Source: a virus. From it: 64,000 nt of DNA. The position numbers and the translations under genes are program-made. This document shows positions 3,703 through 41,392 of the stretch, one piece after another (positions within the stretch are counted from its first letter, which is position 1; the number at the start of each line of letters is the position of its first letter). A model generated the notes under the pieces. It saw only the letters and a list, made by a program, of their open reading frames with translations. It was not told the DNA's origin and did no database searches. The stretch covers positions 224,001 to 288,000 of IMG/VR virus record IMGVR_UViG_3300045988_174371; one strand, 5' to 3'.

Positions 3703-5079
3703 CTACCGGCTAGAGCTCCTACTAGAGGTGGGCTTCGCCGTAGCGGTAGCGCTGGCAGAAGGTTTATTGTTCGGTGTAGCTGTAGACGTTGAGCGAGTAG
3801 CGGCAGGCGCAGGAGTCGCCGTCGCCCTACTAATAGGCGTAACAGCAGAGTTATTAGAACTGACGCTCTTCTCCGAGTTATTATTAGCCGCAACAGCCGG
3901 TGTAGCCTCCACAGGCGGCACAACAGCCGGATTAGTAGTAACCGCAGGGGCAGGAGTTGAGACAATCTCAGGGGGCGCTACAGGCTCAGCAGAAGGAGCA
4001 GGCTCCGGGGCAGTAGATACTGTAGGTTGAGGAGTCGGGGTAGCCGTCTCCGTCGCCGTAGCAGGAATTTCCGTAACAACCGGCTTCCGAACACCGTCAG
4101 ACGGGGATGGAGTAGGCTTCGGGTAACTTCCCTCAACCGGCGTACCCTCAACCACAAGGTTAAACTCATAATTGAAAAGGAACGTTGAGGAAGCCTCCTG
4201 AGTACCATCCGTGCCTACCGAACTTCCCGAGCAGGTAATGAAATAAGCCTTCTTGTCCCCATCCTTGCGCCACAGCTCAGAATGAGATGCCAAGTCTTCC
4301 TGCTTCACAAGATACATGCCAGTTACCACGAACTCGTGGCGGTCGCCATGCTCATCATTCATGTAAATGTGCGCACACTTATCAAGACGATGCAGATACC
4401 CCCACGGCGACAATGAGCCATCGTTAAGGTTGATATGCCCAGCAAGAATTGAAGCGCCAGAATTAGAGCTTAGCGGGGAACCAGACGCATACCAAATGCC
4501 GTTCGGGGCGGCAGGCAACGTGACATTATTGTTACTGAAACCAGATGGTGTAACTTGAGCGCCCTGAACAATCTGCGTGCGTGTCCTCAACGAAGGAGCC
4601 CACCAGCCAGCCGCCCTATTACCGACACTCTTGGGAGCATCAGCAGACGAGCCGTTCACTGCCGCCGGATACAGCGGGCAAGCCTCATTCTTAAACTCTG
4701 TAGCAGGCTTAGGGGCGTACAGCAGACCATTATCAGTGACACCCATACTGTCAGCACCAGCATATGTGACAACACCACCATGACCGTCATCACCCTTAAT
4801 CTGCGCCTTAATCCCAAAGAAATCATCCAAGCCGCTGTACATCCCGTCAGCCGCCGACCCGACCGCACCATACGTGCGCGTCAAATAGGTAGCATCGCCC
4901 AAATGAACACCCCACCCTGTGAAGAAGAGTGCAGACCCTACACAGCCAGCAATAGCCGAAGAAACGACCGACTTACGCTTCCACCACACCGGCTTCTGCT
5001 CGTCAGTCTCCTTATCGGCGGAAACCTCTCCCCCGGCAGGTTTTACTCGCCATGTACGAAAATCTTTCACTCTCATCAC
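3703..5079 (-). CDS. Class F sortase-like protein with N-terminal TM anchor and C-terminal Pro/Thr/Ala-rich tail
   Basis: N-terminal TM segment VVSSAIAGCVGSALFFTGWGV. His block ILAGHINLNDG, Cys block AYFITCSGS, then FNLVVEG. The same layout is seen in the second sortase-like protein at 31708-32535. About 140 aa of low-complexity P/T/A/S tail. Confidence 0.6.
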   Translation of the reverse strand: MMRVKDFRTWRVKPAGGEVSADKETDEQKPVWWKRKSVVSSAIAGCVGSALFFTGWGVHLGDATYLTRTYGAVGSAADGMYSGLDDFFGIKAQIKGDDGHGGVVTYAGADSMGVTDNGLLYAPKPATEFKNEACPLYPAAVNGSSADAPKSVGNRAAGWWAPSLRTRTQIVQGAQVTPSGFSNNNVTLPAAPNGIWYASGSPLSSNSGASILAGHINLNDGSLSPWGYLHRLDKCAHIYMNDEHGDRHEFVVTGMYLVKQEDLASHSELWRKDGDKKAYFITCSGSSVGTDGTQEASSTFLFNYEFNLVVEGTPVEGSYPKPTPSPSDGVRKPVVTEIPATATETATPTPQPTVSTAPEPAPSAEPVAPPEIVSTPAPAVTTNPAVVPPVEATPAVAANNNSEKSVSSNNSAVTPISRATATPAPAATRSTSTATPNNKPSASATATAKPTSSRSSSR

Positions 5080-15259: not shown

Positions 15260-16714
15260 CTACACCTCCTCACTCTCAATAGTCAGCTCAGTAAAGGACA
15301 TTGTGCCCTTACCAGACATGTCAGCGTCACAACTCAGGGGTATCTGAACCTCTGCCCCCGCCTTCACTGTGTCAGCACGGAAAGTGCAAGTACCCAAGTC
15401 TGCCTTATTGAACCAGCTCAAAGGGTTGTACGCCTCGGAACCTGAAGCATGTACAGACCCATAAACACGGTGAGCATTCGTACTACCTTCGTTCTTGAGC
15501 ACAGCATAGTAGCCGCCGTCCTTACGCGCCACCCCCGTAACGGTAACCTTACCATTATCTGCAAGCTCAACACTAGAAGAACCAGACGGACTGAAGACCC
15601 TATCGCCAGTAATCTGACCGTTAATGAAACCACCTAGCAGGAAAACGAGTATCGCCAACGCAACCCCTGCCATACCGCGACCAGTTGGGGTGCCGGGGAC
15701 TGACTTCTTAAAAAGCCTGCCTAGGAGCGGTATTTTCCCGCCCTTCTGTAGGGCACCTGCAACCGTATCCAGGGCACGCAAGAAGAACGCCTTCACGCCA
15801 CCACTAGACCCCTTGGAAGACCCCTTCACGGCATCATCTGCCCCGATTTGTGCAGGTGGCGCAGGGGTTGCAGGTTTTTCATCCGGCTCATCCGCTAGAG
15901 GTTCGGCAATGTCATCATCAGCTAAAATTCCTTCGTTTAGCTCTTCCCATCGGATGAAGTCGTCCGGCTGAAGACTCTCCATTGCCTCGCTCTCGTTGAG
16001 GTCTTGCAGGAAAGTGTCAGCCCAACCAAAATATTCCCCATCTGCGTCCTTGAGCACGTATGCACCATCTGCATCTCGTGCAATGTCATCAGGGGGTGTT
16101 TCGCTTAGGTCGTTATCGGGTGCATCTTCAAAGTCGTCATCGAAGATGTCTTCCCAGCCTTCTTCTCCCTCTTCATCATCCGTATCAGCCTCAGAATGAG
16201 AGGTTTCTTCCGCTTCAGAGGATAGTTCACGGTAGATTTGCGATAAGTAGTCATCATCATCTTCTCCCTCTGCATCATCGTCATTAGTGATAGCTGGAGA
16301 GTAGTCGTCGTCCGGGCTGAAGCTTTCCTCTACAACGGAAGCCGCACGCTCGCTAGGGGACATTGCGTAATAGTCATCGTCTTCGTCCCAGTCGTCATCG
16401 TCATCCCAGGCTTCTTCTAAATCATCTGGCTCTTCTTCCTCAGTAGTGTAATCCTCAACTTGCTCATCATCAAAGACACCGAATTGAGCTGAATCACCTT
16501 GCAGGCTCGCCAATATAGCATTACCTGCTTCAGCCTCAGGGGTAGCATCCGACGTTTCTAGCGTGGCATCTTGCTCCGTTTCAGGGGCAGGGGCATCTTC
16601 CAGCAGAGGGAAGTCATCGGGGTTAATTCCCTCTGCTTCATCGCCTGCTACAGCTGTAGGTGGCGGCACAGGGACGACGGTAGAAGCCCTAAGTTTAGAA
16701 AGACGTATAGCCAT
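15260..16714 (-). CDS. Extremely acidic protein with one TM segment and a C-terminal beta-rich domain
   Basis: About 300 aa of D/E-rich sequence (DDDDWDEDDDYY, DTDDEEGEEGWEDIFDDDFED), then the TM segment GVALAILVFLLGGFI, then a roughly 110-aa beta-type domain. Confidence 0.5.
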   Translation of the reverse strand: MAIRLSKLRASTVVPVPPPTAVAGDEAEGINPDDFPLLEDAPAPETEQDATLETSDATPEAEAGNAILASLQGDSAQFGVFDDEQVEDYTTEEEEPDDLEEAWDDDDDWDEDDDYYAMSPSERAASVVEESFSPDDDYSPAITNDDDAEGEDDDDYLSQIYRELSSEAEETSHSEADTDDEEGEEGWEDIFDDDFEDAPDNDLSETPPDDIARDADGAYVLKDADGEYFGWADTFLQDLNESEAMESLQPDDFIRWEELNEGILADDDIAEPLADEPDEKPATPAPPAQIGADDAVKGSSKGSSGGVKAFFLRALDTVAGALQKGGKIPLLGRLFKKSVPGTPTGRGMAGVALAILVFLLGGFINGQITGDRVFSPSGSSSVELADNGKVTVTGVARKDGGYYAVLKNEGSTNAHRVYGSVHASGSEAYNPLSWFNKADLGTCTFRADTVKAGAEVQIPLSCDADMSGKGTMSFTELTIESEEV

Positions 16715-16823: not shown

Positions 16824-19535
16824 TTAAGCGACTCGGGTATGACCCCAATCGAAAGAACCCTCACCAAACATTCTCACCAAAGCGCTCTTAGTAGCGTTCA
16901 CAAAAGGAACATGGATAGGAACCTCCACATAGCCCATCATGTCCGCCAAATCGTCCATAGAAGCGCTAGAAGCTTCTAGCGGGGCAACTGGAACGTCAGC
17001 CCATGAACGCCCCTCAGAAGGGGCTTCAGTCGCCGCATAAGCGAACTTACTCGGCAAATCGACACCATACCCCAGTTTGGACGAGTCATACACCGCCACT
17101 TTAAGCGGCACCCTCCGCGTCGTGTCAGCCACAGCCAACCCGCCAACAGCAGACTGAACCATGCCCACAGCTTCCTCCAAGGAGCCACCGCGTGAGATGT
17201 CTACTCGAAGCCTAGCGCACATCTCACCTGATGCGGAAAGCGGAACCTGCCGAGTGTTCAAGATGTTCAGGTATGGTGGACGGTAGCTAACCTCCCCCTC
17301 ATCATTAACAATCTTCCGGGCGGGCGTGTAATTCACATGCAGGGAATACACCTGATAAGGCTCTAGTTTAGGGCTAGACCTAACCGACGCAGAGGTTACC
17401 CTGGCAACATCTGCCGCATCAGCATGAACACCTTGCAGAAAGGCGTTCTTCACATTCTGCTCAGAGACCCACAAATCCTCGCGCGTAAGCAAACTGTTAG
17501 ACACATACCCAGCGATAGTACCAGTACCGTCATCTAGCGTTGCCAGAACCTTGCGTCCAAACTTCTTATGCGTCTTATCTTCTAGTGCTACAATCGCCGC
17601 CATAACAACAGCACCCTTTACAGGGTGCTCAGAGGACAATAGCTCACCAACAGTACAAGCACGCATCACCGGAACACGCGGAGGAATTGAAGCCATCGGG
17701 TGACCAGTCATATACTGACCAGCTACCTCAGCCTCATACCTCAGCCTCTCAACCAAGGGATAATCCTCCACAGAGAGAGAAACGTCATCCGGTAGCGACT
17801 CCCCCGTAACCAGCTCAGCATCAGCCGACAGCGCGACCCCCGAATCTTTAGCCGCCTTCAATGCCTGACGTTTAAGCTTAGCCCGCTCTTTACGTAGCAA
17901 ATCCAAGTAGCCAGGGATAGCTTCAAGAACCGCCTTGCGGGAGACACCAAACACATCAAATGCGCCCGCCTTCGCCAAGCCTTCATAGGTAGTCTTAGTG
18001 ACCTTACCGGCATTAAACGTGCGAACAACAAAGTCCTTCACGCCGCGATAAAGTCCGCCACGCTCACGCTCAGACACGATAACCTCAGCATCCTTCGACC
18101 CTACACCCTTGAGCATAGAGAACCCGAAAGCGAGATTACCCTCACCGTTCAACCCAATGTCAGCACTGGAGAAATTCACGTCAGGAACATCCAAACGCAC
18201 CCCGCGCCGCCGAGCGTCCTCAATAAGCTCCTGAACCTTGTCTCGACCTGCTGACCCCATCGTAACCTTACGGGCAATAGCCGCCGCATAGAACTCCGCA
18301 GGATAATGCGCCTTCATATACAAGGCAAGATAAGCCATCGCCGCATACGCATCCGAGTGCGATTTATTGAAGCCATACTCTGCAAAGCCAACAATCCTAT
18401 CCCACAACGTCTGCATCGCCTCACGGCTGAAGCCATTAGATGCGCCGCCTGAGATGAAACGCTCAGCATATGCCAGCATCAAGTCGTGCTTCTTCTTGCC
18501 AATCGCTCGACGCAAATCATCGCCCTCTTGGGGAGTCATCCCAGCAATCAGAGAAGCAATAGACATCACCTGCTCCTGATAGACCAGAAGACCGCTCGTA
18601 TCTGCAAGAATGTCATCAAGAGCCGAACCTACGAAGTCAGGGTGAATTGGCTTCACTTCCTCACGACCAGCTCGACGCTCCACATACTGAATATGACTAC
18701 CAGCACTCATAGGCCCTGGACGATACAGCGCCGTAATAGCCGAAATGTCACCCAGCGTGCTAGGGGCGAACTTCGTGAAAAGGTCAGCAACAGCAGAATT
18801 ACCTAGCTGGAAGATACCAACCGTATCACCCTTACCCAGCAGACGGAACGTCTCAGCATCATCAAAGCGGCTTTCTCGAACCATCTTCCTGAAGTCAGGG
18901 ACATCTTTCCCCGCCTGGACTGCTAGACGTGCCGCATCACACAGAATATCAACAGTATCCAGCCCCAAAAAGTCGAACTTAATAAGCCCCATGCTTTCGC
19001 ACGCACCATACTCAAACCCCGCAACAACAGACCCATCCTTCGCCGTATCAACGGGAACATGATGATGCAGAGGGCTTGACGAGATAAGCAATCCGCAAGC
19101 ATGAACACCACGACCACGGATGCGACCTTCAAGGGCTTTCGCGCAAGCGATTGGCTTCTCCCAGAACGGCGTGTCTACAGCCTCACGGAAACGTGCAGAG
19201 CCAGCATACTCTTCACTATCAGGGTCATAGACCTTAGCGAAAGTAATTCCGAGGCTATCCGGCAAGAGACTTGTCACGTAGTTCGCCTGAGCGGGAGGCA
19301 CCCCGTAGACACGCGCACCGTCTTTAATCGACGCGCGCGTCTTGAGCATCTGATTAGTTGGCAACCTTGCAGAATGGTCAGCCCCATATAGCTGAGCAAC
19401 ATGCTCAAACGCGGCATCTCTATGCGCAGTATGAAAGTCAGTGTCAATATCCGGTGGAGAACCAGGGTGTACAACCTTATTGCTCGTGACGCGAACGTAC
19501 ACCTTGCCCTCAACAACTCTTTTCTCTACACCCAC
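16824..19535 (-). CDS. dnaE: DNA polymerase III alpha subunit, C-terminal fragment (catalytic palm Asp pair, thumb, fingers, C-terminal domains)
   Basis: After a 27-aa non-DnaE head (MGVEKRVVEGKVYVRVTSNKVVHPGS) come PPDIDTDFH, GLIKFDFLGL, ALYRPGPM and FNKSHSDAYAAMAYLALYMKAHYP. GTG start 2 nt after the dnaX-like stop, with GGGAGG upstream. Confidence 0.9.
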   Translation of the reverse strand: MGVEKRVVEGKVYVRVTSNKVVHPGSPPDIDTDFHTAHRDAAFEHVAQLYGADHSARLPTNQMLKTRASIKDGARVYGVPPAQANYVTSLLPDSLGITFAKVYDPDSEEYAGSARFREAVDTPFWEKPIACAKALEGRIRGRGVHACGLLISSSPLHHHVPVDTAKDGSVVAGFEYGACESMGLIKFDFLGLDTVDILCDAARLAVQAGKDVPDFRKMVRESRFDDAETFRLLGKGDTVGIFQLGNSAVADLFTKFAPSTLGDISAITALYRPGPMSAGSHIQYVERRAGREEVKPIHPDFVGSALDDILADTSGLLVYQEQVMSIASLIAGMTPQEGDDLRRAIGKKKHDLMLAYAERFISGGASNGFSREAMQTLWDRIVGFAEYGFNKSHSDAYAAMAYLALYMKAHYPAEFYAAAIARKVTMGSAGRDKVQELIEDARRRGVRLDVPDVNFSSADIGLNGEGNLAFGFSMLKGVGSKDAEVIVSERERGGLYRGVKDFVVRTFNAGKVTKTTYEGLAKAGAFDVFGVSRKAVLEAIPGYLDLLRKERAKLKRQALKAAKDSGVALSADAELVTGESLPDDVSLSVEDYPLVERLRYEAEVAGQYMTGHPMASIPPRVPVMRACTVGELLSSEHPVKGAVVMAAIVALEDKTHKKFGRKVLATLDDGTGTIAGYVSNSLLTREDLWVSEQNVKNAFLQGVHADAADVARVTSASVRSSPKLEPYQVYSLHVNYTPARKIVNDEGEVSYRPPYLNILNTRQVPLSASGEMCARLRVDISRGGSLEEAVGMVQSAVGGLAVADTTRRVPLKVAVYDSSKLGYGVDLPSKFAYAATEAPSEGRSWADVPVAPLEASSASMDDLADMMGYVEVPIHVPFVNATKSALVRMFGEGSFDWGHTRVA

Positions 19536-19537
19536 AA

Positions 19538-20827
19538 TTAGCCTCCCTGAGGTGCCTTAGTCTGACTCTGCTTAGCCGTAATGACCGAGCGCATACGCAT
19601 AGTCACATCAATCCACAGAATCTCAAAGATAATGTTCTCGTCACTGGTATTCCAGAATCCCTGGAAAGACCTCTCCAGAGTCTTTAGGAGCTTCATCGCC
19701 ATATCTGGCGGCAAATGACGGCGCATCTCCTGCAATCCAATGTCCTGTTTAGGCAAGTCAGCAAACGGCAAATCCGCGTTGCTGACCGTTGCCCCGTAAA
19801 CCCAGGTGATGTAATGGCGAAGCTGACCCATAACCTCCTCCGTGCCATCACGCAAGGATGCCTCATGCTCCTTCGCGTCCTCCAGAGCCTCGTGGATACG
19901 AATAATATCGCCGTAAATTAGGCACCTCAACAGGCTAGTAGCCGTCGATTCGGTACCACTGTACATGTCTGGGTTGCGCAGGTACTCTTCAAGCTTCTTG
20001 AGCGCGCCACGTGCAGAGCCCTTTGCCGCCCTAGCGCACCATGCCGCGCCCGAGTCAGAGATTTCTTTATGCTCGCGCGCCGCAATGTCACGAACATACT
20101 TCTCCAAAGTAGCTACAGGGATATTCTTAAGCTTATACTCCTGAACTCGCGTAAGAATCTCATCCTTGATGCCGTTCATCTTCGTAGTGCAGAAAAAGAT
20201 GGGCACATAGTCGGCGCTATCCTTATTCTCCAGGTACGGCAAGAAAGCGTTCCATGCAGGCTCAGACAGCGCATGACACTCATCAATGATGATGAACGGA
20301 GCTTTCTGCATCTGCTTAACTGAACCGTTACTGACGATACGTCTAGTATCTTCCACACCACTCTTAAGTGCGGCAACGAAATGGTTCATACCACCATTGG
20401 CGGAGGCATCGAAAGCAAGGCACGCATCACAGGTCAAGCAAGGGTCTGCCGAGTCAGCAGGGCGACCCGTGCAGTTCATAGCCTTAGTGAAGACCTTCAC
20501 AATACTAGACTTACCCACGCCAGGCTTACCGCGAAGCAAACGCCCCTGAACGCGGCGATTCTTAATGATGTCCTCCTTCAGCTGGGCAATAATCTCTTCC
20601 TGCCCAACAAAGTCACCCCATACTCGCGGCTGGTACTTACGGTGGAACTCAACGTATTCCTCATCGCCCTCCTGAGGCTCTTCTGCCTCATCGGTAGGTT
20701 CTAGTACCTCAGCATCAGAAACCGTCTCGTCGCTAAAGGGCTCAATCGCGCCACCAGGGTCGCCCACAGACTCCAAAGGCAACGTCTCTTCCCCTAGGGG
20801 CAAAGTGTCATGCATCTCTTCAGTCAT
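19538..20827 (-). CDS. dnaX: Clamp-loader AAA+ ATPase (DnaX tau/gamma-like) with an acidic N-terminal extension
   Basis: Walker A GKPGVGKSS, Zn module CLTCDAC, Walker B FIIIDECHAL, sensor-1/SRC region FFCTTKMNGIKDEILTRVQEY. Confidence 0.8.
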   Translation of the reverse strand: MTEEMHDTLPLGEETLPLESVGDPGGAIEPFSDETVSDAEVLEPTDEAEEPQEGDEEYVEFHRKYQPRVWGDFVGQEEIIAQLKEDIIKNRRVQGRLLRGKPGVGKSSIVKVFTKAMNCTGRPADSADPCLTCDACLAFDASANGGMNHFVAALKSGVEDTRRIVSNGSVKQMQKAPFIIIDECHALSEPAWNAFLPYLENKDSADYVPIFFCTTKMNGIKDEILTRVQEYKLKNIPVATLEKYVRDIAAREHKEISDSGAAWCARAAKGSARGALKKLEEYLRNPDMYSGTESTATSLLRCLIYGDIIRIHEALEDAKEHEASLRDGTEEVMGQLRHYITWVYGATVSNADLPFADLPKQDIGLQEMRRHLPPDMAMKLLKTLERSFQGFWNTSDENIIFEILWIDVTMRMRSVITAKQSQTKAPQGG

Positions 20828-20842
20828 AACCTATCTTCCTCA

Positions 20843-22345
20843 CTAATCCAAAGTCTCACTAATAACGTCACCTAGTGTCGTACCGGGCTCTAGGAGAACC
20901 CAATCGCCGGGAAGTACCTGGTGAACATACTTCTCCAACTCTGCGCCGCCATCCGTCAGTACTTTAACTTTCTCGGAGACAGGCAAAACGGCAGAGCTTT
21001 CATCTCCAAACCTCAGCTCTGCCTGGTCTACACGACCTGCTGAGATGAAACGTTCAAAGAACAAGCCGAACTCGATAGGGTCAATGTCAGTAATGCCCAG
21101 CAGATAAGCGACGATAGAGCCTCCAGCAGAGCCACGAGCGATACCTACCGCACTCATCACAATCTCATCAGCCGCATTACGGACACTGAACGATTCACGG
21201 AACCAATTCACGTATTCAGCCACGATAACCATGTAGCCACAATAGTTTGCTGAGGCTAGGGCATCAAGCTCTTTCTTTGCACGCTCCAACACCAGAGAGT
21301 ACTTATCCTTGTCATGGTGAAACTGCTCATAAGCGAGCGACGTAACCGTCCTACGCAAGTAGCTTTCCTCAGTCTCGTCCGCCGGAATGAGTGGCACAGG
21401 ACGCAAATCAGACCTGTACTCAAACAGCGAGAATCCTTGCACCTTGCCCGCAAGCTCAGCTGTATTAGTTACTGCACCTGGGTACTCCGTATCCGGGAAA
21501 AGACGCATCATCTCGTCTGCGCTCTTGAGGTAGTACTGGTCGCCGTCAAAGCAAAACCTGCGACCACCCTGTTCCTTCGGCAAGTCATTCATTGTTGAGC
21601 CTGTACCGATAGCAAGCATCTCCTCATGGTGGGGTGCATCCTGAGGCAATGCATAATGGCAATCGTTAGTTGCCAGTAGGCGCAACCCCAAATCCTTAGC
21701 GAGTGCGACCTGCTTCACCAGCAGGGACCGCTCCAAATCTGAAGACATCGAATGGTTCATAACCTCTACGAAGACGTTCTCGACACCGTAAATGTCGATA
21801 AGAGTCTGCGCATAGGAATAAGCCTCAGCATCCTGCCCCAAACGGAAACGGGTAGAAATCTCACCAGAGGGACATCCAGTAGATACCACAATGCCCGACG
21901 AATATTCCCTCATCATCTCCAAATCGATACGGGGGTACCCGCCGCGCTTATGCTCAGGGGAAGCCGCCAACATCTGCAACGTAAACATATTACGCAGACC
22001 CTCATCATTGACAGCCCACATCGTCAAATGCAGATAGTTACCCCTGCCAGACACATCCCCAACAGCCCCAGGCGCACCGTAAAAAACGGGAGTCTTCACT
22101 TTAGCACCCTCAGGGTTAATCGGTGCGACGTAGAACTCACAACCTGGTACGGGGGTGACACCAGCCTTTTGGCAACCCGTCACAAGTTCATAGATGCCGT
22201 GCATGTTGCCGTGGTCAGTGATACCCAGAGCAGTCTGACCTGCATCAACTGCACGCTGAATGTACTCGCTGACACTAGAGAAGCCGTCTAGCGTGGAGTA
22301 TGTTGAGTGCGTATGAAGGTTTACGAAAGATTCAGGGGAAACCAA
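20843..22345 (-). CDS. dnaE: DNA polymerase III alpha subunit, N-terminal fragment (PHP domain and start of palm)
   Basis: VNLHTHSTYSTLDGF, LGITDHGNMHG and GSAGGSIVAYLLGITDIDPIEFGLFFERFISAGR, followed by a 62-aa non-DnaE tail ending ISETLD. TTG start with GAGGAA upstream. Confidence 0.9.
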   Translation of the reverse strand: MVSPESFVNLHTHSTYSTLDGFSSVSEYIQRAVDAGQTALGITDHGNMHGIYELVTGCQKAGVTPVPGCEFYVAPINPEGAKVKTPVFYGAPGAVGDVSGRGNYLHLTMWAVNDEGLRNMFTLQMLAASPEHKRGGYPRIDLEMMREYSSGIVVSTGCPSGEISTRFRLGQDAEAYSYAQTLIDIYGVENVFVEVMNHSMSSDLERSLLVKQVALAKDLGLRLLATNDCHYALPQDAPHHEEMLAIGTGSTMNDLPKEQGGRRFCFDGDQYYLKSADEMMRLFPDTEYPGAVTNTAELAGKVQGFSLFEYRSDLRPVPLIPADETEESYLRRTVTSLAYEQFHHDKDKYSLVLERAKKELDALASANYCGYMVIVAEYVNWFRESFSVRNAADEIVMSAVGIARGSAGGSIVAYLLGITDIDPIEFGLFFERFISAGRVDQAELRFGDESSAVLPVSEKVKVLTDGGAELEKYVHQVLPGDWVLLEPGTTLGDVISETLD

Positions 22346-22526: not shown

Positions 22527-23756
22527 TTAAATTTTGGTTCGACGCAACCGAGTCTGAGTCTTCTCATCAAGCTTCGGCTTCACCTGGTAGATTCTCTCTG
22601 CCATTTGAACAAGGGGAAGAGCCTTTGCAGACTTACCCACTGCGCTACCATTAACGATACCAACATCAAGATAGCGAGTAGGATTACCTTGAGCATCGAG
22701 AGGGGAATCTGGCATCGCCAGCGTAATGTTACGCTTGTCTGCGGGGCATGTGTTACCTACATCCATTAGGATAGGGATAACGCCAGGCGGTGTGCGGGAG
22801 ATGACCTTATCGAAGAGCCACGGCTCAACAGGTTTCCCTGCATAGGTAAGTCGTCGAGACTTTACCTTATCCCCAAAAAGACCGACCTTTTCTTCCAATA
22901 CGAAGGATGTTTCCATCTTTACGGGGAAGAATAGGTATGCCCTCTGCCCTACCACGAAGACCGGCGCCGGAGCGCCATTGCGAGGCGCAGTATAGGGGTA
23001 GTAGTACCATTCAGAGTCGTACTTATTCTTATGCTCCTCATTTAGGAGCGCGGCTTCTTCCTTGACTTTCTTCTCCAAATGCTTAGGCTGTACGAACACT
23101 GGCATCTTCGCGCGCCAGTAGAACATCTTAACGCCGTAGCGATACCACAAAGAAGAAATGCCCACAGAGAGAAGCATTAGAACGCCGCCACCAAGAGCTG
23201 GGTTTAGCGTAGAAGCCGTCGTGATAACGCCAGCAGTAGTAGCGAGAACGGTCACCCACGGCTGATGCGTCCAACGGGACACCCCATAAACTCCGAACAA
23301 GGAGATGGTGTATGAAATTCCTAGAGCCAGCAGTGGGGAGAAACCTGCGAAGAACTCCCAGCCGCTATACGGCGAAGCGAAAACCGCCACATCATGCATC
23401 GTCACCATACAATAACCAACAATGGTTAATGTCACAAGAACTTTAATGATGACGACGGAACGGCTCAGCACGAACAGGAACCCGGCAGACACCACGAGCC
23501 AGACCCACGGAGCCCACCAAGACAACCCCTGAATACGGGATGAGACAATAGAGAGGAAGAGCGTAATCGAAACAGCGGGAAGTGCGAATCGCCCATACGA
23601 GCCTTCCAGGAACTCTACAAGCCACTTACTGAGCCTGCGGAACGCTGAAATGCACCTGTCTCTAAATGTCTTCTTCACCCCATCGCTGGAACTTTCAACC
23701 GTATCACCTGTAGAAATGTCCACAAGGGATTCCTCAGCATTAGCTTTCTTCTTCAT
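22527..23756 (-). CDS. Multi-pass membrane protein with a soluble C-terminal domain
   Basis: About 6 hydrophobic segments in the first 200 aa, then a roughly 190-aa soluble domain. Its start overlaps the MazG-like stop by 17 nt. Confidence 0.5.
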   Translation of the reverse strand: MKKKANAEESLVDISTGDTVESSSDGVKKTFRDRCISAFRRLSKWLVEFLEGSYGRFALPAVSITLFLSIVSSRIQGLSWWAPWVWLVVSAGFLFVLSRSVVIIKVLVTLTIVGYCMVTMHDVAVFASPYSGWEFFAGFSPLLALGISYTISLFGVYGVSRWTHQPWVTVLATTAGVITTASTLNPALGGGVLMLLSVGISSLWYRYGVKMFYWRAKMPVFVQPKHLEKKVKEEAALLNEEHKNKYDSEWYYYPYTAPRNGAPAPVFVVGQRAYLFFPVKMETSFVLEEKVGLFGDKVKSRRLTYAGKPVEPWLFDKVISRTPPGVIPILMDVGNTCPADKRNITLAMPDSPLDAQGNPTRYLDVGIVNGSAVGKSAKALPLVQMAERIYQVKPKLDEKTQTRLRRTKI

Positions 23757-24498
23757 TCGTCACCCAGCTTCCCATATGCTTAGTCTTGCCACCTTCAAGT
23801 ACCGGAGCAAGATTCGGAGGGACGAAGTTCTCGCCTTTAAGAATTTTTCCATCCTCACGGTAGATAGGCTTGCCGTCAGCCCCCAACTTCGTCATATTAG
23901 ACGCATGGATTTCCTGGTTCACATGCTCCAACGGTACACCCATAGCAACAAACGTGCCGGTGTTAATGTACCGGATGTCACCCAGCGCATCAAGGATAGC
24001 CAGCTTATCTACAGGAAGCTCATCAAGGGGCTTCGCGCCAACGATAGCGTTCAACGCCGCCTTGAAAATCATAAACGCTGGCATCAAAGCAGACTTAACA
24101 GCCTCCTTATTCTGCACATCACTGGACTCAGCCGCAACATCCAGCACCACGTCGAGAAGAGGGACGACAGACTTCAATGCGCTTTCAAGAGACTCTCTGT
24201 TGATGGAAAGCTCCTCAAGAGACTTCGCCTGAACAATAAAATCAAGGCAAGCCTCAAAAAGCAGAGCCATCGGATTGCCGAAAATACCTTCAGTTAGTTC
24301 CCCAGACTCCTCACCATGCAAGGTGTAGCGGCGAACTAGTTCACGCTTGCCCTCGACGCTTTCCAAATCGATAGGGTTAGTGAACCCATTCTGATGCCCG
24401 AACGTATCATGAAACTGGCGCAATGCGCGAGACTCATACTCTTCACTAGGGTGAATCTTCGGGGGAAGCGCGGGAATTTCGAACTTAGACATATTCAT
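23740..24498 (-). CDS. All-alpha NTP pyrophosphohydrolase (MazG/DR2231-like)
   Basis: HGEESGELTEG, ALGDIRYINTGTFVAMGVPLEHVNQEIHASNMTK and GKILKGENFVPPNL match the E..E / D...Y / H.SNM.K / GK..K....PP pattern of the DR2231-type MazG family, as recalled. Confidence 0.55.
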   Translation of the reverse strand: MNMSKFEIPALPPKIHPSEEYESRALRQFHDTFGHQNGFTNPIDLESVEGKRELVRRYTLHGEESGELTEGIFGNPMALLFEACLDFIVQAKSLEELSINRESLESALKSVVPLLDVVLDVAAESSDVQNKEAVKSALMPAFMIFKAALNAIVGAKPLDELPVDKLAILDALGDIRYINTGTFVAMGVPLEHVNQEIHASNMTKLGADGKPIYREDGKILKGENFVPPNLAPVLEGGKTKHMGSWVTNEEES

Positions 24499-24649
24499 GT
24501 CTCCTTCTAGTAACGTGATAGATGTTTTGCGCCGCGCACAAAGAAGAATGTAGCGTCTTCCCTGTGCGCGGCAAAAAGAAGCTAATGAGGGATGCGAGTC
24601 CCCTGTTAGCCATATCTCAATTATGAGCTAGTACCAGCTTACCACTACT

Positions 24650-25537
24650 CTAGCTAAACTGCTCAGTGGAGAAGAACTCCACATTCTTAGCCTGGCTAAA
24701 CTCGTCAGGCAATGAAAGCACACGCGGAACAACGAAGGTCTCAGAGCCGTCAGTTGCGCTTACCGCAACGTCCTTAGAGTCATTGCGTACATGCCAGTGA
24801 CCATGAACAAGTACGCGCGGCTTCGCGGCAACAACCGCATCTGCAATATTAGCGCGGCTCCGCTCCGCTCGGGCAAGCACTCTAGCCGGAACATTACTCA
24901 GGGAGCTCTGTACGCGGCTCTGGGGCACTGGCGCAGTCGGCGGCGCATCATGTGTCAGCATCATATCAACGACCCCTCCAAGGCGCTCTACGCCGCCCTT
25001 AACTCGCTGAACATCTTCAGTGGTGACCTGCTCGTTGATAGACCAATAACGGCGCATCTGCTCAAACTCAATATTGATACTTCCAGCGCCACCACAAGCC
25101 AAGAAGCTCATGCCTCGCTTACCGCCAGCGGTACCTAGGCGGGCAGTAGCGCCTCGCGTCGCCCAAACCACACGGGGAGTGATGAAGACAAAGCCGTCCT
25201 CATTCGCGGTATCGCGCAAATCATTTAGACCTGCGCGAGTCAAGACAGCATCGCTAGAATATGCTGGGGTTCCAGAGGAAGCATACTGCTCATGATTACC
25301 ATCAATGAAGAGCACAAAATAATCATGTAACTTAGCACGATTCGTAATCATAGAAACATACTCTTCATACCCAGGCAATGACGGGTAGTAGCCAAAATCA
25401 CCCACATGCAGAATGACATCCACGCCCTTACTCTCCACGTAGGTAAGCACCTTATTCACGCGCTCCGTATTCATATGCCAGTCTCCGGCAACAGCAACGG
25501 TCTTAGCATTAGCTAGATGCTCATAGAAATTCTCCAT
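24650..25537 (-). CDS. Calcineurin-like metallophosphoesterase
   Basis: VAVAGDWHMN, ILHVGDFGY, FIDGNHE and VLVHGHWH. ATG 25537 (GGAGAA 5 nt upstream) is preferred over the track start at 25549. Confidence 0.8.
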   Translation of the reverse strand: MENFYEHLANAKTVAVAGDWHMNTERVNKVLTYVESKGVDVILHVGDFGYYPSLPGYEEYVSMITNRAKLHDYFVLFIDGNHEQYASSGTPAYSSDAVLTRAGLNDLRDTANEDGFVFITPRVVWATRGATARLGTAGGKRGMSFLACGGAGSINIEFEQMRRYWSINEQVTTEDVQRVKGGVERLGGVVDMMLTHDAPPTAPVPQSRVQSSLSNVPARVLARAERSRANIADAVVAAKPRVLVHGHWHVRNDSKDVAVSATDGSETFVVPRVLSLPDEFSQAKNVEFFSTEQFS

Positions 25538-25574
25538 ACATTTCTCCATTCAAATAGTAGGTTCACGCATCCCC

Positions 25575-26840
25575 TTATAGTGATGCGTTCTTCTCGAAAA
25601 CTCGTTCTTCGCCGCGCTTCAGATAAGCCTCTGCAAGGTCAGTAGCTCTCTTACGCGCTTCCGGGTCAGCAATGCTATTCAGAGTCTCTGAGCGTTCCGT
25701 CCAGGCGTGGTAAGCCGCGCCCAGACCACCACCCTGAATGAGCGGGATGTCTACAGCATCATCTTTCACCTCGGCTTCGGAAGGTAGCTTCTCTTCTTTT
25801 GCCGCGCGTGGCGCAAGGTTATAAGAGAGTGCAAACTTCGACGCATCATCGATAAGAGTCTGGTCGCGCGCGGCAAACACGGAAGGGGTAGCCCCAAATA
25901 CGCGCTGACGCAAGATAGGCGCATTAGCAGGGTCGTACTCAAGACCCTCACTAGCAGGCGGCAAATTCGCCAAAATAGCCTCAGTGAGCGCCACAGAATC
26001 AAGACCCTCAGCATAGATGGGCGGCAAATCCTCCTGAGGGCGCTGACGGACGTTCTTCATCTCACGAGTAACGGAGCCGTCCGGCGCAATATGCCACAGC
26101 GTATAGCCGCGCCCAAGAGCGCCCTTCGCATCAGCGAAGCCGCGCCTAATTAGTGAGCCGTTATAGAAGATGCCGCTATGTTCATCGCCAACAAAGCCGC
26201 GCTCATGAATATGCCCAAGCATCATCGCATCCCAACCCGCATAAAGGAACGAGTCAGGAATAACTACCTCGCGCACAGTATCATTTACGCGGATACGCTC
26301 TTTCAACAAAGGGTCAATGAGTGAGCCGTGCGTCGTAAGGATATTGATAGCCCCCTTAACCGGCTCGACCTTCTTCATCACATCTACACTCTCTGTGTAC
26401 ATGTGATGACTCACCATATGTAGGGCAATATCATCGTTAATGTGATACAGCTGGTAGGGGTTAGCGTGAGAGTAGATGCCCATCTGCGGTAGATGCAAGT
26501 TCCTTGTAAACGCAACATCACTCTTTACGTCGTTCACGTCATGATTTCCCGTAATGTTGTAGACAGGGATTCCTGCCTCAGCAAGCCGCATCAGTCCAAG
26601 ACGCATATGCAGGCGAGCACGGTCGGACGGGTTCGGCTCATGCCCAATATCGCCAGCAATGACTACGGCATCCACTTCATCAGCGATAATGCCATCGATA
26701 GCTTCTTCCCATGCCAGGTAGCCGTCAAGCTCACGTAGCGGGATAAGCATCCCATCGTCGGGGTCTTCGCCTAGGCGGTTCAAAGACGAGTTATCGCGGT
26801 ACCCTAGATGCAGGTCTGATAGATGAGCAATCGTAAACAA
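25575..26840 (-). CDS. Mre11/SbcD-family nuclease
   Basis: IAHLSDLHLGY, VVIAGDIGHEP, YNITGNHD, LTTHGS and MLGHIHERG occur in canonical order. TTG start. No SbcC/Rad50 partner is seen in the window. Confidence 0.8.
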   Translation of the reverse strand: MFTIAHLSDLHLGYRDNSSLNRLGEDPDDGMLIPLRELDGYLAWEEAIDGIIADEVDAVVIAGDIGHEPNPSDRARLHMRLGLMRLAEAGIPVYNITGNHDVNDVKSDVAFTRNLHLPQMGIYSHANPYQLYHINDDIALHMVSHHMYTESVDVMKKVEPVKGAINILTTHGSLIDPLLKERIRVNDTVREVVIPDSFLYAGWDAMMLGHIHERGFVGDEHSGIFYNGSLIRRGFADAKGALGRGYTLWHIAPDGSVTREMKNVRQRPQEDLPPIYAEGLDSVALTEAILANLPPASEGLEYDPANAPILRQRVFGATPSVFAARDQTLIDDASKFALSYNLAPRAAKEEKLPSEAEVKDDAVDIPLIQGGGLGAAYHAWTERSETLNSIADPEARKRATDLAEAYLKRGEERVFEKNASL

Positions 26841-26848
26841 TTCTTAAG

Positions 26849-26917
26849 TCTTTCAGTGGTATAGGAAGAACGGGCACCCATTCATCTGGTGCCCGTTCAA
26901 ATTATACCACTGAAAGA
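26849..26917. promoter_or_regulatory. Nested palindrome carrying back-to-back CTTTCAGTGGTATA motifs
   Basis: Outer 15-bp arms tctttcagtggtata (26849-26863) and tataccactgaaaga (26903-26917). Inner 11-bp arms gaacgggcacc (26868-26878) and ggtgcccgttc (26888-26898). The minus strand reads CAGTGGTATAAT, a near-consensus extended -10, upstream of the SbcD-like gene. Confidence 0.45.
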
Positions 26918-26922
26918 ATAAG

Positions 26923-27165
26923 TTACACACCCTGAACTCGGGCGATAACCTCCTGAACCCTCTCCTGAACTTCGGGAGATAGCTTACTCATGTCGCCCTG
27001 AATCTTCTGGAACAGGTCTGCGTAGGTGGTAGCCGCCTTAATGAACTTGGCGACGTTACTTTTCAGCGTGTACTGGGCGTTAGTCTCAGTGAGCTTAGTG
27101 ATGGCGGCAAGCTGGCTGGGGCCCGAAAGAGTCTCAATGTCGTGGTAAGTTGCGTTAGGTGTCAT
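26923..27165 (-). CDS. Small helical hypothetical protein (80 aa)
   Basis: ORF with GAAAGG 9 nt upstream of the ATG, bracketed by strong hairpins on both sides. Confidence 0.5.
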   Translation of the reverse strand: MTPNATYHDIETLSGPSQLAAITKLTETNAQYTLKSNVAKFIKAATTYADLFQKIQGDMSKLSPEVQERVQEVIARVQGV

Positions 27166-38202: not shown

Positions 38203-41200
38203 TTACTTCTCGTCAGCCTCAGTAGCCTTACGGCGCTTACCCAGGAGCAAAGCCCCAAGACCAGCACCAACAGCGGCAAACAACCCAGCCTGACCAGCAA
38301 CACCATTACCAGTGTCACGACCAGTCTTAGCCTCCACCTGCTTCACAGGCTCAGCAGGCTTCTCAACTTTCGGCTCCTCAGGCTTAGGAGCCTCAGGAGT
38401 TACTGGCTCAATCTTGTGCTCAAGACGAATCACAGCCTGAGTAGTAAGACCCGAAACCGTGGACACCTGATAGGTCACCTCAGGAAGCTCGCCAGTGTAA
38501 CCTGCCACACGCAGGAACTTCACGACACCATTCTCATCAACGGTGTAAGTGCCCTTACCCTCGAAGGTTCGAGAAGTAACCCAAGAACCATCCTCAGCCT
38601 GGAAGCGAATAGTCTTCGCATCCAGCGGGTCATCAACACCGTTAATGGAACCGCCCTTGTCGTTGCTCAGAACGCCCTCTAGGACAGTCTCATCAGTGGT
38701 GATGGTGTAGCTGTCGTCAGATGCCTTCGGCTCAGTGTAGGTAGCTTCCGGGTTATCTGCGACAACCGGAGGGTTGCCCGGAACCTCAGAGACAACCTCA
38801 GCAGTCGCCTTAGCGGGGTCGGTCACAGTCTGAGCAGTACCAACAGTACCGTTTACCTTAGTACCGTCCCAACGCTTGAAGATATTAGCCGTCTGAGTCG
38901 CCTTGTAGGTAACCTCAGCAGTCTTACCCGAAGCCACGGAAACGGTGCCAACCTCAAGGGTCTTCGTCTCACCAGGGGCAAGGGTGAATCCAGCAGGCAA
39001 GGTTACCTTAGCGCCCGCCGCATTAGCGACAGTCAAAGTGTCAGCGTTCAAAGTGACAGCAGAGCCAGAGGTGTTAGTCACATCAACCGTGACCTTGCCA
39101 GTAGCACTACCATTCTCGTCAAGCTTCAACTTCACCGGGTTAATGTTCGCATCGTCACCGTTAATCTTAGTAACGATTCCGATAGCCGTGTTGATGGGCT
39201 GAATGTGCAAGGTGACAGTAGACTCTGCTTCCTTACCATCAGCAGTGGACACGATGTAACGGACAGTGAAATCGCCAATAATGTTCTGCGGGTGGTCGAA
39301 AACAACCTTGCCATTGACAACCTTGGCGGTCACGCCGGAATCACCGAAGCTGTAAGACGTGGAGCCCTTACCATCGCCAAGCTTCAAAGTAGAAGCATCG
39401 ACGGTGCTACCCTCAACCTTGGCAGTAGCCAGCGGGTCAAGAGTATGGGACTTCTCGCTATTCACCAGAACAGTCTTCTCCGCCGGAGCAACAGTCAGGT
39501 TCGACTGCTTAGCCCAAGTGAACGTTGCAGTGGACGGAACCTTAGTGGTTGCCTTACCGCTATCGTAAATATTGTAGTTCACGGTCACGGTGCCGCTGAA
39601 ACCCTTCTCGGGGACGGCAGTTGCGACACCATTAGCGTCGATAGTGATGGTCGCCTTACCCGGAACAACAATCTTCTTACCACCCTCAGAAATGGTCGCA
39701 CCATCCGTAGTGGAGAAGATAGTCTTAGTCTTATCCAGGGTGTACGGCTTAACCGTAGAGGAGTTCTCCATCAGGTCAGCAGTCAAAGTGACACCGTAAG
39801 CGCCCTGCTTCTGCTCGTTACCATCCTTGGGCAAAGCGTAAGACTCAGCGGAACTGTCCTCGTAGCTGTAGCCACCCCATGCGGTAATAAAACCAGTCTG
39901 CGGGCGACCGGCAACGTCAGTGCGGTAGGTGCGACCCTCAAAGGTGAAAGTCGTTTCCTTGTTTCGGATTGCCTCAGCGGTCAGCTGTACGTCACCGCAA
40001 CGCTTCCCCTCGGAGTCGATACCGGGGCCGTAATCCTTAACCTTCCAGTGAGGCTCCTGCTCAACAACCTTAGTGACATCAGGCGAGGTGGTGGAGAACC
40101 AGAACGACATACCATCCCACAAAGCGGTGTACTTGAGAACCAGCTTACCAGGGGTGGACTTCTCAAAGTCGATAGTTACCAGAGGCTCAGTGACACCACG
40201 TTCCTTCAACTCGCCACGGACAGTGTTAGCGAAGTTGCCTGTTGCGGAACGCGCCCAGAACTTGTCGGATACCGTATTAACATCATAAGTGCCGTCAAGC
40301 CACTCATTCTGCTTCATACCATCATTAACAGTAATGTACTTACGCAGGTCGGGGTTATCCTTACCCCACTGTGCCAGCTCCTTACCCTGAAGCGGGTACC
40401 AGCGCCCACCAATCTCCTTAGCAGGCATAGAAGCAATTAGCGCGAAGTTAGGGTTCTTCTTGAGGTAGTCATCTGCTTCACCCTGACCGATACGGAATTG
40501 CTGTTTCGCAGGGTCGATAATCAGCTCAATTTCGTAGGTGCCACCCTTGACAACGCCATTCGGGACAGTCTGACCCTTCAAGAATGCGTCAGGAACGCCA
40601 CACTTTGCGACACCCTGACCGCCGTACCAGACACCACCAGGTGAAATGAAGTTCGGCGTAGTGGCGGCGGGGTTCAGCTTAATCTGACCGCCATTGATGG
40701 TGCCAATACCTGTTGCCTTATACTTCAGGTCATAGGTCTTGAGAACCTTCTCATCATTTAGCGGGTCAATATTTGCTGTGAAGTTCGCGCTAATGTCACG
40801 CGGGTTCTCAGTAATCGCATCATTCCAGGTAATGCGGATAATGCGGCTATTCGTCGGGTGGTTAGACAGGGTACCAATCTTCTTGCCGCTTGCGTCAAGA
40901 ACATCTACCATCTTAGTGGTAAACAGAAGGTTGTTGGCATTTTCCTTACCTTCGGAGCCAGCCGCCAAAGTGGGGATAAGCTCAATCTCGGTAGTCTGCC
41001 CCGCCTTGAGCGCACCGTCCAGGTTCGGGATGGTGAGGGTTACCTGTCGGGTGACGCCACCACGACCATTGGTGAGAGTCTGCACTTCCTCGCCGCCAGC
41101 CACCTTGAGTGAAGCGCCTGCAAGGTTGCCGTTCAAGGTGGTAGCAGTAGTAGCGTTTGCATCAGCCGCAAACGCCGGAGCGATACCACTCACAGTCGGG

Positions 41201-41262: not shown

Positions 41263-41392
41263 TAGGTTTGTCTCCAATAATAGGTTACAGAACAATTGCC
41301 GGGACACTGAGCACTCTATGCGGCATCAGTTCCCCGGCAGGTTAGCGTCTTACTCAGACGTGCTGGAGAGAAGCTAACCTTTACACAAGATA

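Follow-up and report, generated by a model that had tools for sequence, protein, structure and literature searches.

A huge-phage DnaE split in front of its catalytic aspartates, with halves probably joined by a truncated, inactive intein remnant

The split DnaE intein of cyanobacteria consists of about 100–123 + 36 amino acids (aa) and carries Cys1, a TxxH motif, a terminal HN and a +1 Cys; in Synechocystis it sits at residue ~774 of the polymerase. Split inteins also occur in the 'fractured genes' known from marine metagenomes. These are replication genes of phage type, three dnaE loci among them, that are broken at an intein and have a gene between the halves (Dassa et al. 2009, PMC2677866). 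These split inteins keep the six Hint motifs and five catalytic residues, the intervening gene encodes a free-standing homing endonuclease, and the dnaE split sites differ from the cyanobacterial one (PMC2677866). A split without a described connecting module has been reported for the T4-like jumbo phages of group 2.2, where a minimal DNA polymerase III (Pol III) alpha module is divided between an N-terminal protein that binds NTP and a C-terminal one that binds Mg/DNA, encoded by separate genes (Iyer et al. 2021, PMC7824862). This version lacks the PHP and other domains and occurs alongside a family B polymerase (PMC7824862). Here we analyze a dnaE locus in a 64,000-nucleotide stretch of viral DNA (IMG/VR record IMGVR_UViG_3300045988_174371, positions 224,001 to 288,000; referred to as the window, with coordinates counted from its first letter). 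Its polymerase gene is broken directly in front of the catalytic aspartates, and the two halves probably assemble through a small module that resembles a dead intein.

The dnaE of the window occupies two open reading frames (ORFs) on the minus strand, which also carries the gene between them and all sites of this locus described below. The first, dnaE-N (20843-22345), has a TTG start and encodes 500 aa, in which Pfam recognizes the PHP domain (aa 10-198, 21752-22318; PF02811, 118.8 bits, E = 4e-34) and the first part of the palm (aa 329-440, 21026-21361; positions 2-100 of the 260 in PF07733, DNA_pol3_alpha). This part of the palm contains the GRGSAGGS motif (aa ~401-410) and the FERF helix (aa 430-433), with G401, R404, G405, S406, G409, F430-F433 and R438 as invariant alignment columns. 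The second, dnaE-C (16824-19535, 903 aa, GTG start), provides the strand with the catalytic aspartates, PPDIDTDF (19434-19457, at profile position ~100), which we take to be equivalent to PDFDVDF of E. coli. It continues with the remainder of the palm (PF07733 positions 100-260), the fingers (PF17657, E = 8e-44), the (HhH)2 region (HHH_6, PF14579, E = 1.9e-19) and the C-terminal region. The break is thus located exactly at position 100 of the palm model. Contiguous bacterial DnaE queries give the same picture in tblastn: their residues 21-241 match 21688-21029 and their residues 242-697 match 19460-18075. Because these two residue ranges adjoin, the break is exact and no DnaE sequence has been lost. 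The same searches found no third dnaE piece in the 64-kb window. Judged from the sequence, the pair has the parts of a DnaE-type Pol III alpha (PHP, palm with GS motif and catalytic aspartates, fingers and (HhH)2), with the catalytic core distributed over two ORFs and a 1.3-kb gene between them.

At the break, both halves carry additional residues. DnaE-N ends in a tail of 62 aa (aa 439-500, 20846-21031; VDQAELRF...KYVHQVLPGDWVLL...ETLD), the putative N-terminal half of a truncated Hint-like module. DnaE-C begins with a head of 26 aa (19458-19535; MGVEKRVVEGKVYVRVTSNKVVHPG, plus the +1 Ser), the putative C-terminal half, directly followed by PPDIDTDF. The original prediction from the sequence had counted 27 residues for this head; the correct number is 26, or 25 if the Ser is counted as part of DnaE. 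It had also described the split of dnaE at the palm with a clamp-loader ATPase gene between the halves, on which ORFs, Pfam and tblastn agree, and the spacers, which are indeed 15 nt on one side and 2 nt with a GGGAGG on the other.

The gene in the middle (19538-20827, ATG start) encodes a clamp-loader AAA+ ATPase of the DnaX (gamma/tau) type, 429 aa long and extended at the N-terminus by an acidic stretch. It matches PF13177 (DNA_pol3_delta2) with E = 4.8e-14 and 53.1 bits against a cut-off of 27, and residues 5-260 of E. coli gamma/tau with E = 1e-25 in phmmer. By eye, we recognized the motifs GKPGVGKSS, C-x11-C-x2-C-x2-C, IIDECH and TRV, so that Walker A and B, the zinc module and the arginine finger of a DnaX/delta'-type AAA+ protein all appear to be present. 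DnaE-N ends with TAG, followed by an in-frame TGA and a second TAG. The 15-nt spacer (20828-20842) contains a GAGGAAG ribosome-binding site (20835-20841) ahead of dnaX. The latter ends with TAA, 2 nt before the GTG of dnaE-C, and the GGGAGG ribosome-binding site of dnaE-C (19542-19547) lies inside the end of dnaX, 6 nt ahead of the GTG at 19535. No promoter-like or terminator-like sites above shuffled expectation were found between the genes. In the phage clade of the window, dnaE-N, the dnaX-like gene and dnaE-C most likely share one transcript.

Artefacts are frequent among split essential genes, and for this reason an assembly artefact, a sequencing frameshift or a decaying pseudogene had to be considered, although we found no positive evidence for any of them. 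An identical N-fragment is encoded on five independently assembled contigs from human oral metagenomes, the longest of 360,715 bp. A 306,861-bp IMG/VR contig is 99% identical, and relatives at 82% and 74% identity have the same three-gene order with the same tail and head. There are hundreds of homologous split pairs, more than 100 clusters for each half, a whole 1.3-kb gene separates the halves, several in-frame stops follow the first one, and all Pfam domains are intact. Purifying selection on the tail and head is seen in the ratio of nonsynonymous to synonymous substitution rates (dN/dS), which is well below 1 (0.10 for the tail, 0.33 for the head, 0.17 for both together). These values come from the gap-free pair of the window and its relative L002 only, as those for L003 are invalid because of a one-codon indel. 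The chance that the split is an artefact or a pseudogene is therefore negligible. Read-through or recoding of the stop codon can be ruled out as well: across lineages, N-fragments end in TAG, TAA or TGA with extra in-frame stops, and some C genes are ~200 kb away.

Huge phages share this split in more than 100 protein clusters of N-fragments and more than 100 of C-fragments. Used as a database query, the N-fragment yielded 375 proteins at E ≤ 1e-30 among the scored candidates. The best 120 of these 375 are nearly all 470–520 aa long, cover 95–97% of the query including the tail and are encoded on contigs of up to 681 kb. With full-length DnaE-C as query we obtained 120 proteins of 870–930 aa, or of ~1190 aa with an intein elsewhere, and not one of the 120 has a PHP domain. 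The full-length query was necessary to recover the family, since the first 420 aa of DnaE-C gave only partial bacterial DnaEs.

Gene order varies among these relatives. The arrangement of the window (N, dnaX, C) occurs in at least 12 distinct lineages, including phages with an identity of only 45–52%, whose contigs measure 307 and 670 kb. In further lineages, unrelated genes come after dnaE-N and dnaX, and the C gene is remote. Using a pattern scan for head plus catalytic motif, together with contig coordinates, we located the remote C gene on six IMG/VR contigs, ~174 kb (three contigs) or ~210 kb (three contigs) and up to 212 kb from the N gene. The remote pairs keep tail and head, and each remote C gene begins with a short head. 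In loci of the L052 type, the N and C genes overlap by 10 nt without dnaX between them. In a further group, family B, the N gene is directly followed by a C gene for ~675 aa, again with no dnaX between; its tail matches the tail of the window family in hhalign with a probability of 96.6% (E = 5e-10). Because the two genes lie ~174 or ~210 kb apart in some relatives, the halves function in trans. The original prediction had read the locus as three translationally coupled cistrons rather than a frameshift. The true split is borne out, while the tight coupling is inessential, given the relatives with adjacent N and C genes or with a remote C gene. Since gene order varies, the translational coupling in the window is a local arrangement, and dnaX between the halves is a secondary, lineage-specific operon feature on which the split does not depend.

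The tail follows FERF(L/I)SAGR(G/V) and has the consensus aTYrITYDDGTtEEiiVSdeKkV...G....KY(I/V)HQL..GD.V, after which the gene stops. It is conserved in more than 110 clusters, and the clade of the window aligns to the consensus without gaps. In most lineages the head is 15–19 aa long (M..KKI..I.VV.PGS); in the window clade it measures 25–28 aa because of an extra hairpin, GKvYVRV. If tail and head are removed, SAGR(V/G)-S-x remains between FERFx and PD. These 7 residues correspond to the spacing in most contiguous phage DnaEs.

A search of 1.84 billion representative proteins with the tail profile resulted in 162 matches at E ≤ 1e-3. Among them are about 20 contiguous DnaEs (1134–1788 aa) in which the module lies unsplit between GRG and GS-x-PDxDxDF, with a length of 54–65 aa (95 aa in P0410). 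In P0385, for example, it begins ATYQITYEDD...GDVV and the junction reads ...GRG-ATYQITYEDDSVETINIANQKDVNGTKKYIHELQVGDVV-KDDSES-KKIIKIKIIDAGS-PPDVDTDF; further examples are P0383, P0392 and P0400. All DnaE Pfam domains are present in P0385. Upstream, its contig, L163, carries genes that are also found there in the window (Peptidase_S26, Metallophos); downstream, it has no dnaX. Tail and head each represent half of a single domain, which is also found unsplit in contiguous DnaEs. The unsplit forms show that the module is tolerated as a permanent insertion in the palm, and that the split is a further step, or one that was reversed by fusion.

We also noticed a match of the DnaE junction with the unsplit module in gp252 of Bacteroides phage DAC22 (MT074141.1, 161353-165177; 1274 aa; sister phages DAC16/19/20/23 and SJC03). 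This 'hypothetical protein' matches with 31% identity over 126 aa and is probably an unannotated DnaE. The tail profile additionally matches large proteins, among them P0361 (2087 aa), P0362 (2515 aa), P0367 and P0470 (7637 aa), in 6–28 repeated stretches that correspond to profile positions ~16-45, the TYxITYDDGT..E hairpin. They probably constitute an unrelated family of beta-hairpin repeat proteins. A different insert of ~110 aa, helical-looking, occupies the same FERF-to-PDxDxD site in the contiguous DnaEs P0446, P0447, P0449, P0478 and P0505 (GRGTQY..F....ELWVLENQ....ATLPDIDTDI). Because of this second type of insert, the site seems to be a general insertion hotspot.

The structure of the module was modelled in two ways. 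The context model comprises N-fragment aa 265-500 fused to C-fragment aa 1-385 (621 aa) and has a mean predicted local distance difference test (pLDDT) value of 81.4. In it, the tail forms five strands and a helix and the head three strands (pLDDT of these blocks 75–93). The domain model, computed with AlphaFold2 for the 115-aa tail-plus-head from a checked alignment, reaches a pLDDT of 86.2 and a predicted template modelling (pTM) score of 0.70. Here the tail consists of five strands and one helix and the head of two strands, with pLDDT values of 92–97 for the module blocks. Both extra peptides had been suspected to be beta-rich and to assemble with each other, and the models predict that they form one domain together.

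In a Foldseek search of the PDB with the domain model, ranks 1 to 24 are all inteins or Hedgehog Hint domains (probability 0.75–1.0, E = 0.012–0.6). The best match is the RadA mini-intein of P. horikoshii (4e2u; E = 0.012, probability 1.0, 87 columns, root-mean-square deviation 2.7 Å). Others are the PolII, TFIIB, VMA, CDC21, GyrA and DnaB inteins, the Aes123 PolB1 split intein and Hedgehog 1at0. The context model matches Pol III alpha of M. tuberculosis, Taq and E. coli at E = 1e-21 to 1e-31, and below the DnaE/PolC structures most of the next-ranked matches are again inteins or Hedgehog Hint domains. Of the named matches of the domain model in BFVD, most are terminases, ribonucleotide reductases and polymerases that bear inteins; a 'Hint module' is also among them. 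The lead to Hint domains and inteins, which the original prediction had suggested following with profile searches, was thus taken up by the predicted fold, while sequence profiles alone had found nothing. As the Foldseek E-values all stay above 1e-3 and the matches extend over only about half of a mini-intein (target-normalised TM-score ~0.33), the predicted Hint-like fold of the tail-head module is well supported but not proven.

Instead of binding each other, tail and head might dock on a third, bridging protein such as the DnaX-like clamp loader or a sliding clamp. E. coli tau binds alpha, dnaE-N is followed by the dnaX-like gene at most loci of huge phages, including those with a distant dnaE-C, and modelling of a fused chain would miss such a bridge. 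However, the unsplit DnaEs hold tail and head as one contiguous segment of 54–65 aa, and the tail-head segment is predicted as one compact domain (pLDDT 92–97). Moreover, split and module are found without an intervening dnaX in family B, at L052-type loci and in cultured Cellulophaga phages, and the contiguous relative L163 has no dnaX beside dnaE. We therefore consider a bridging protein very unlikely. A beta-clamp family was not seen among the 20 window proteins scanned; the window represents about one fifth of the genome.

Profile comparisons also connect the tail to inteins. With hhalign, the family A tail profile aligns to 15 inteins from other sites of the same DnaE family (P = 2e-3 to 3.5e-3, probability 9–14%; tail 4-46 to intein 50-88), and the family B tail profile does so with P = 5e-4 and a probability of 31.6% (intein 47-87). 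Against the Hint domains that end the proteins P0453 and P0490, the family A profile scores P = 9e-5 and a probability of 59% (tail 3-45 to intein 47-88). Reversed tails compared with the same targets gave P = 0.73 and 0.074. All forward alignments share one register, which runs from the strand ahead of block B through block B to the GD.L hairpin behind it. P0453 and P0490 are themselves DnaE N-fragments whose Hint domain comes after FERFLDxxRL..GGKVSG (PT-HINT, 8.9e-8; Hom_end_hint, 2.9e-11) and has Cys1, TWGH or TPNH, and block F. By eye, IRIVYEDKYYFDCTPNHEILTLRNNQQKYVHAHELQVGDLL of P0490 lines up with the tail consensus YRITYDDGTTEEIIVSDEKKVL....KYIHQL..GD.V. Likewise, the window head GKVYVRVTSNKVVHPG/S (the slash marks the junction) resembles blocks F/G of inteins of the family, GKVYDLQVENTHNYTVEGVTVHN/S (GKVYDLQVE...VTVHN/S).

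The two Hint-bearing genes lie at 5001-7184 of contig L166 (P0453) and 1423-3591 of L164 (P0490), ending in ...VYDLEIENKHYYRVCGRRKI and a stop a few residues short of block G. They could represent natural split inteins whose C-piece is very short, an additional stage of decay, or frameshifts. An unrelated gene follows P0453. L164 is not translatable under table 11 and may use an alternative genetic code.

None of the residues needed for splicing is conserved in the module. Among non-redundant members, position 1 is A in 41, S in 16, D in 15, N in 13, P in 10, H in 7 and E in 1; the window has Asp. The last two residues are PG in 34, AG in 8, GG in 1 and VG in 1, and the final residue is never Asn. 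At block B, a conserved Ser (VSxxxxV, ≥90% conserved) takes the position of the Thr and there is no His, hence no TxxH. The segment with block A appears to be deleted, as the tail aligns to intein positions 47-88. The module thus looks like an intein without block A and all catalytic side chains. This loss is specific to the module, because true inteins in the same split DnaE family keep C...HN/S, at the GS motif and at FNK/C. These inteins (GRG/C...HN/SVGGS at the GS motif, FNK/C...HN/S in the fingers) are complete and apparently active, some with homing-endonuclease inserts. They are carried by the N-fragments P0025, P0038, P0078, P0085, P0118 and P0120 and by the C-fragments at L021 9603-13277 and in ~35 of P0255-P0351.

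It is conceivable that the module is nevertheless an active, atypical split intein and that the halves trans-splice to a single-chain polymerase. The fold is intein-like, the +1 residue is Ser in 42 of 44 sequences (it is also the S/T of canonical ..(V)S-x-PD), and removal of the module would give the canonical spacing. In addition, inteins with Ala at position 1 are known (class 2, KlbA-type). However, the module has no conserved nucleophile at position 1 and no block-B His. It ends in Pro-Gly or Ala-Gly and never in Asn, Gln or Asp, which makes succinimide formation impossible. It comprises just 60–88 aa without the block A segment, and contiguous DnaEs retain the same dead module. Splicing thus seems highly improbable.

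We propose that this phage makes its Pol III alpha-type replicative polymerase as two polypeptides that would assemble non-covalently. The cut lies inside a small module, predicted to be beta-rich, located between the FERF...GR(V/G) helix and the S-x-PDxDxDF catalytic strand and presumably related to inteins by its Hint fold, but truncated and catalytically dead. The 62-aa tail would correspond to the block-B segment of an N-intein, and the 26-aa head to the block F/G strands of a C-intein. Folding onto each other in the manner of a split intein, they would set ...FERFISAGRV beside SPPDIDTDF and complete the palm, so that the GS-motif half, which binds the deoxynucleoside triphosphate, would meet the Mg-binding aspartates. 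As the module has neither the nucleophile nor the TxxH nor the terminal HN, no splicing would follow and no peptide bond would be formed, and the Hint remnant would stay as a permanent clasp beside the active site. Co-transcription of dnaE-N, the dnaX-like gene and dnaE-C could provide for matched synthesis of the polymerase halves and the clamp loader. We infer that the two polypeptides associate physically without splicing in vivo, that the heterodimer has polymerase activity, and that the module descends from a once-active intein. That the enzyme is a genuine two-polypeptide polymerase joined through the module is very likely. The combined statement, in which the polymerase is rebuilt by a clasp that is a dead, truncated intein remnant, is less certain, and we regard it as probable.

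Several observations weigh against this proposal. Even at E ≤ 10, no Hint family is among the Pfam matches of tail, head or their fusion, and PDB sequence searches with the three gave nothing meaningful. The hhalign probabilities are modest (9–59%). The Hint domains of P0453 and P0490 lie ~13 residues downstream of the module site, in ORFs that end before block G, and a DNA pattern scan of viral contigs revealed no allele with Cys directly after FERFxxxxR[GV]. Both structure models are of covalently fused single chains. The alignment of the context model is faulty in the tail, which was effectively modelled as a single sequence, because MAFFT placed the tails of N-only sequences onto columns of the C-part.

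It is therefore possible that the module is a small palm insertion domain that does not come from an intein, that its Hint-like fold is convergent, and that the gene broke in an exposed loop with the halves still assembling through the domain. Besides the failure of Pfam Hint models and PDB sequences to detect the module, the Foldseek E-values of only 0.01–0.6 with half a Hint domain covered would fit this explanation. So would the match of the first hairpin of the tail profile to unrelated repeat proteins, and the unrelated helical inserts of ~110 aa show that the site tolerates inserts generally. However, all 24 of the top PDB matches are Hint domains with probabilities of 0.75–1.0. Three independent profile comparisons lead to the same intein segment (P = 9e-5 to 3.5e-3) while the reversed controls fail, and related DnaE N-fragments have recognisable Hint domains at almost the same position. 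Finally, the module directly precedes a conserved Ser and is broken where split inteins break. An insertion of non-intein origin is thus unlikely, and descent from an intein is the explanation that we prefer.

For the history of the split, we calculated a neighbour-joining tree from the 240 residues upstream of FERF. It has no support values and gives a rough picture, which is a further point against our proposal. The split clade of huge phages that includes the window is monophyletic, with the contiguous group P0384, P0386 and P0398 as sister. In a second clade, contiguous and adjacent-split forms are nearest neighbours (P0385-P0377, P0389-P0378, P0405-P0397), a pairing that points to repeated fission or fusion within the module. 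Family B clusters with P0453 and P0490, the Hint-bearing proteins. A tentative scenario, which we consider quite possible but would not yet favor, is that a selfish intein was domesticated as a miniature non-splicing clasp. This would have made the active site of the polymerase divisible and enabled repeated, independent fission of dnaE in phages, with the halves adjacent, separated by dnaX or 200 kb apart. In huge phages the split would have become fixed, possibly as an assembly checkpoint that ties activity to co-expression of two separately placed genes and the clamp loader.

The source of the window is a jumbo phage. Upstream of dnaE (22527-27000) we found the gene order Peptidase_S26, a ~310-aa protein, (PIF1 helicase), two Metallophos proteins, a MazG-like PRA-PH protein, a membrane-like protein of ~400 aa and dnaE. 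This synteny is common to the window, its distant relatives L018, L021 and L022, and the contiguous-DnaE phage L163. Directly downstream of dnaE-C (15260-16714, minus strand) lies a gene for an extremely acidic protein of 484 aa, with long D/E runs, a C-terminal hydrophobic segment, a beta-rich end and no Pfam match on record; it is kept in L002, L003 and L021. Other genes in the window, all on the minus strand, encode a 1022-aa protein with GH25, four LGFP repeats and NlpC/P60 (50451-53519), a second NlpC/P60 protein (42479-43591), a sortase-domain protein (3703-5079) and an adhesin-like protein of 1034 aa with CshA repeat and Big_9 (38203-41307). The cell-wall-related genes among them suggest a Gram-positive, possibly actinobacterial, oral host.

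If our proposal is true, the catalytic center of the main replicative polymerase is shared by two polypeptides, one contributing the GS motif and the other the Mg-binding aspartates, which would be unusual for any replicase. A very large group of huge phages, most of them uncultivated and some from the human mouth, would have such an enzyme. The module would also be a clear example from nature of an intein without its chemistry that still keeps fragments associated, thus tying the decay of a selfish element to gene fission. For annotation, it is relevant that the halves now appear as hypothetical or as two genes for 'DNA polymerase III alpha' and could pass for pseudogenes. The tail-head pairs (about 45–60 + 15–25 residues) could serve as compact non-covalent assembly tags, and if the domesticated clasp is real, nature would offer in them a whole set of small, orthogonal heterodimerisation tags that do not splice. 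The homologous split of cultured Cellulophaga phages makes the question testable now.

The Cellulophaga phages phi19:2, phiST and phi13:1, which belong to family B, are the cultured counterpart. Their gp044 and gp045, both annotated 'DNA polymerase III alpha subunit', break at the same site and have a homologous tail (GRMGEYQDRP...EGDDLIKY and a stop, then 1 nt, then the head MKIINIEQNTAPKLVNGT/LPDIDTDF). They differ from the window in that no dnaX lies between the halves, the genomes measure ~78 kb and the C-fragment is shorter (673 aa). P0385 and DAC22 gp252 have the same insertion at the same site, also without splicing residues, and P0385 shares the upstream synteny, but both are single polypeptides. 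In our literature search, whose coverage was incomplete so that an earlier description is possible, we found no description of this split family or of the Cellulophaga split. Three leads proved irrelevant: B. thuringiensis phage 0305phi8-36, a survey of Pol III alpha in bacterial genomes, and split PolB intein remnants in Methanothermobacter.

The split polymerase of the group 2.2 jumbo phages is apparently cut in the same general region of the palm. By its published description, it differs from the enzyme of the window, which is full-size, with PHP, palm, fingers and HhH, and has a conserved, putatively Hint-like clasp. Compared with the fractured genes, the proposed Hint element here is a dead remnant and the intervening gene encodes a DnaX-type clamp loader, while relatives have nothing between the halves, or 174–212 kb. 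The likeness to the split DnaE of cyanobacteria (Ssp/Npu) is that two genes encode the catalytic subunit of a C-family polymerase, whose halves are joined by an element of the Hint type (a predicted one here), one part of it ending the N-piece and the other beginning the C-piece. However, the cyanobacterial element is complete, trans-splices to one chain and is located at another site. The element described here sits directly before the catalytic aspartates, has none of the splicing residues and measures 62 + 26 aa, or about 45 + 17 aa in most relatives. A split DnaE with an intein is itself already known; new is a split replicative polymerase in which the proposed Hint-type junction is dead, truncated and placed at the catalytic aspartates.

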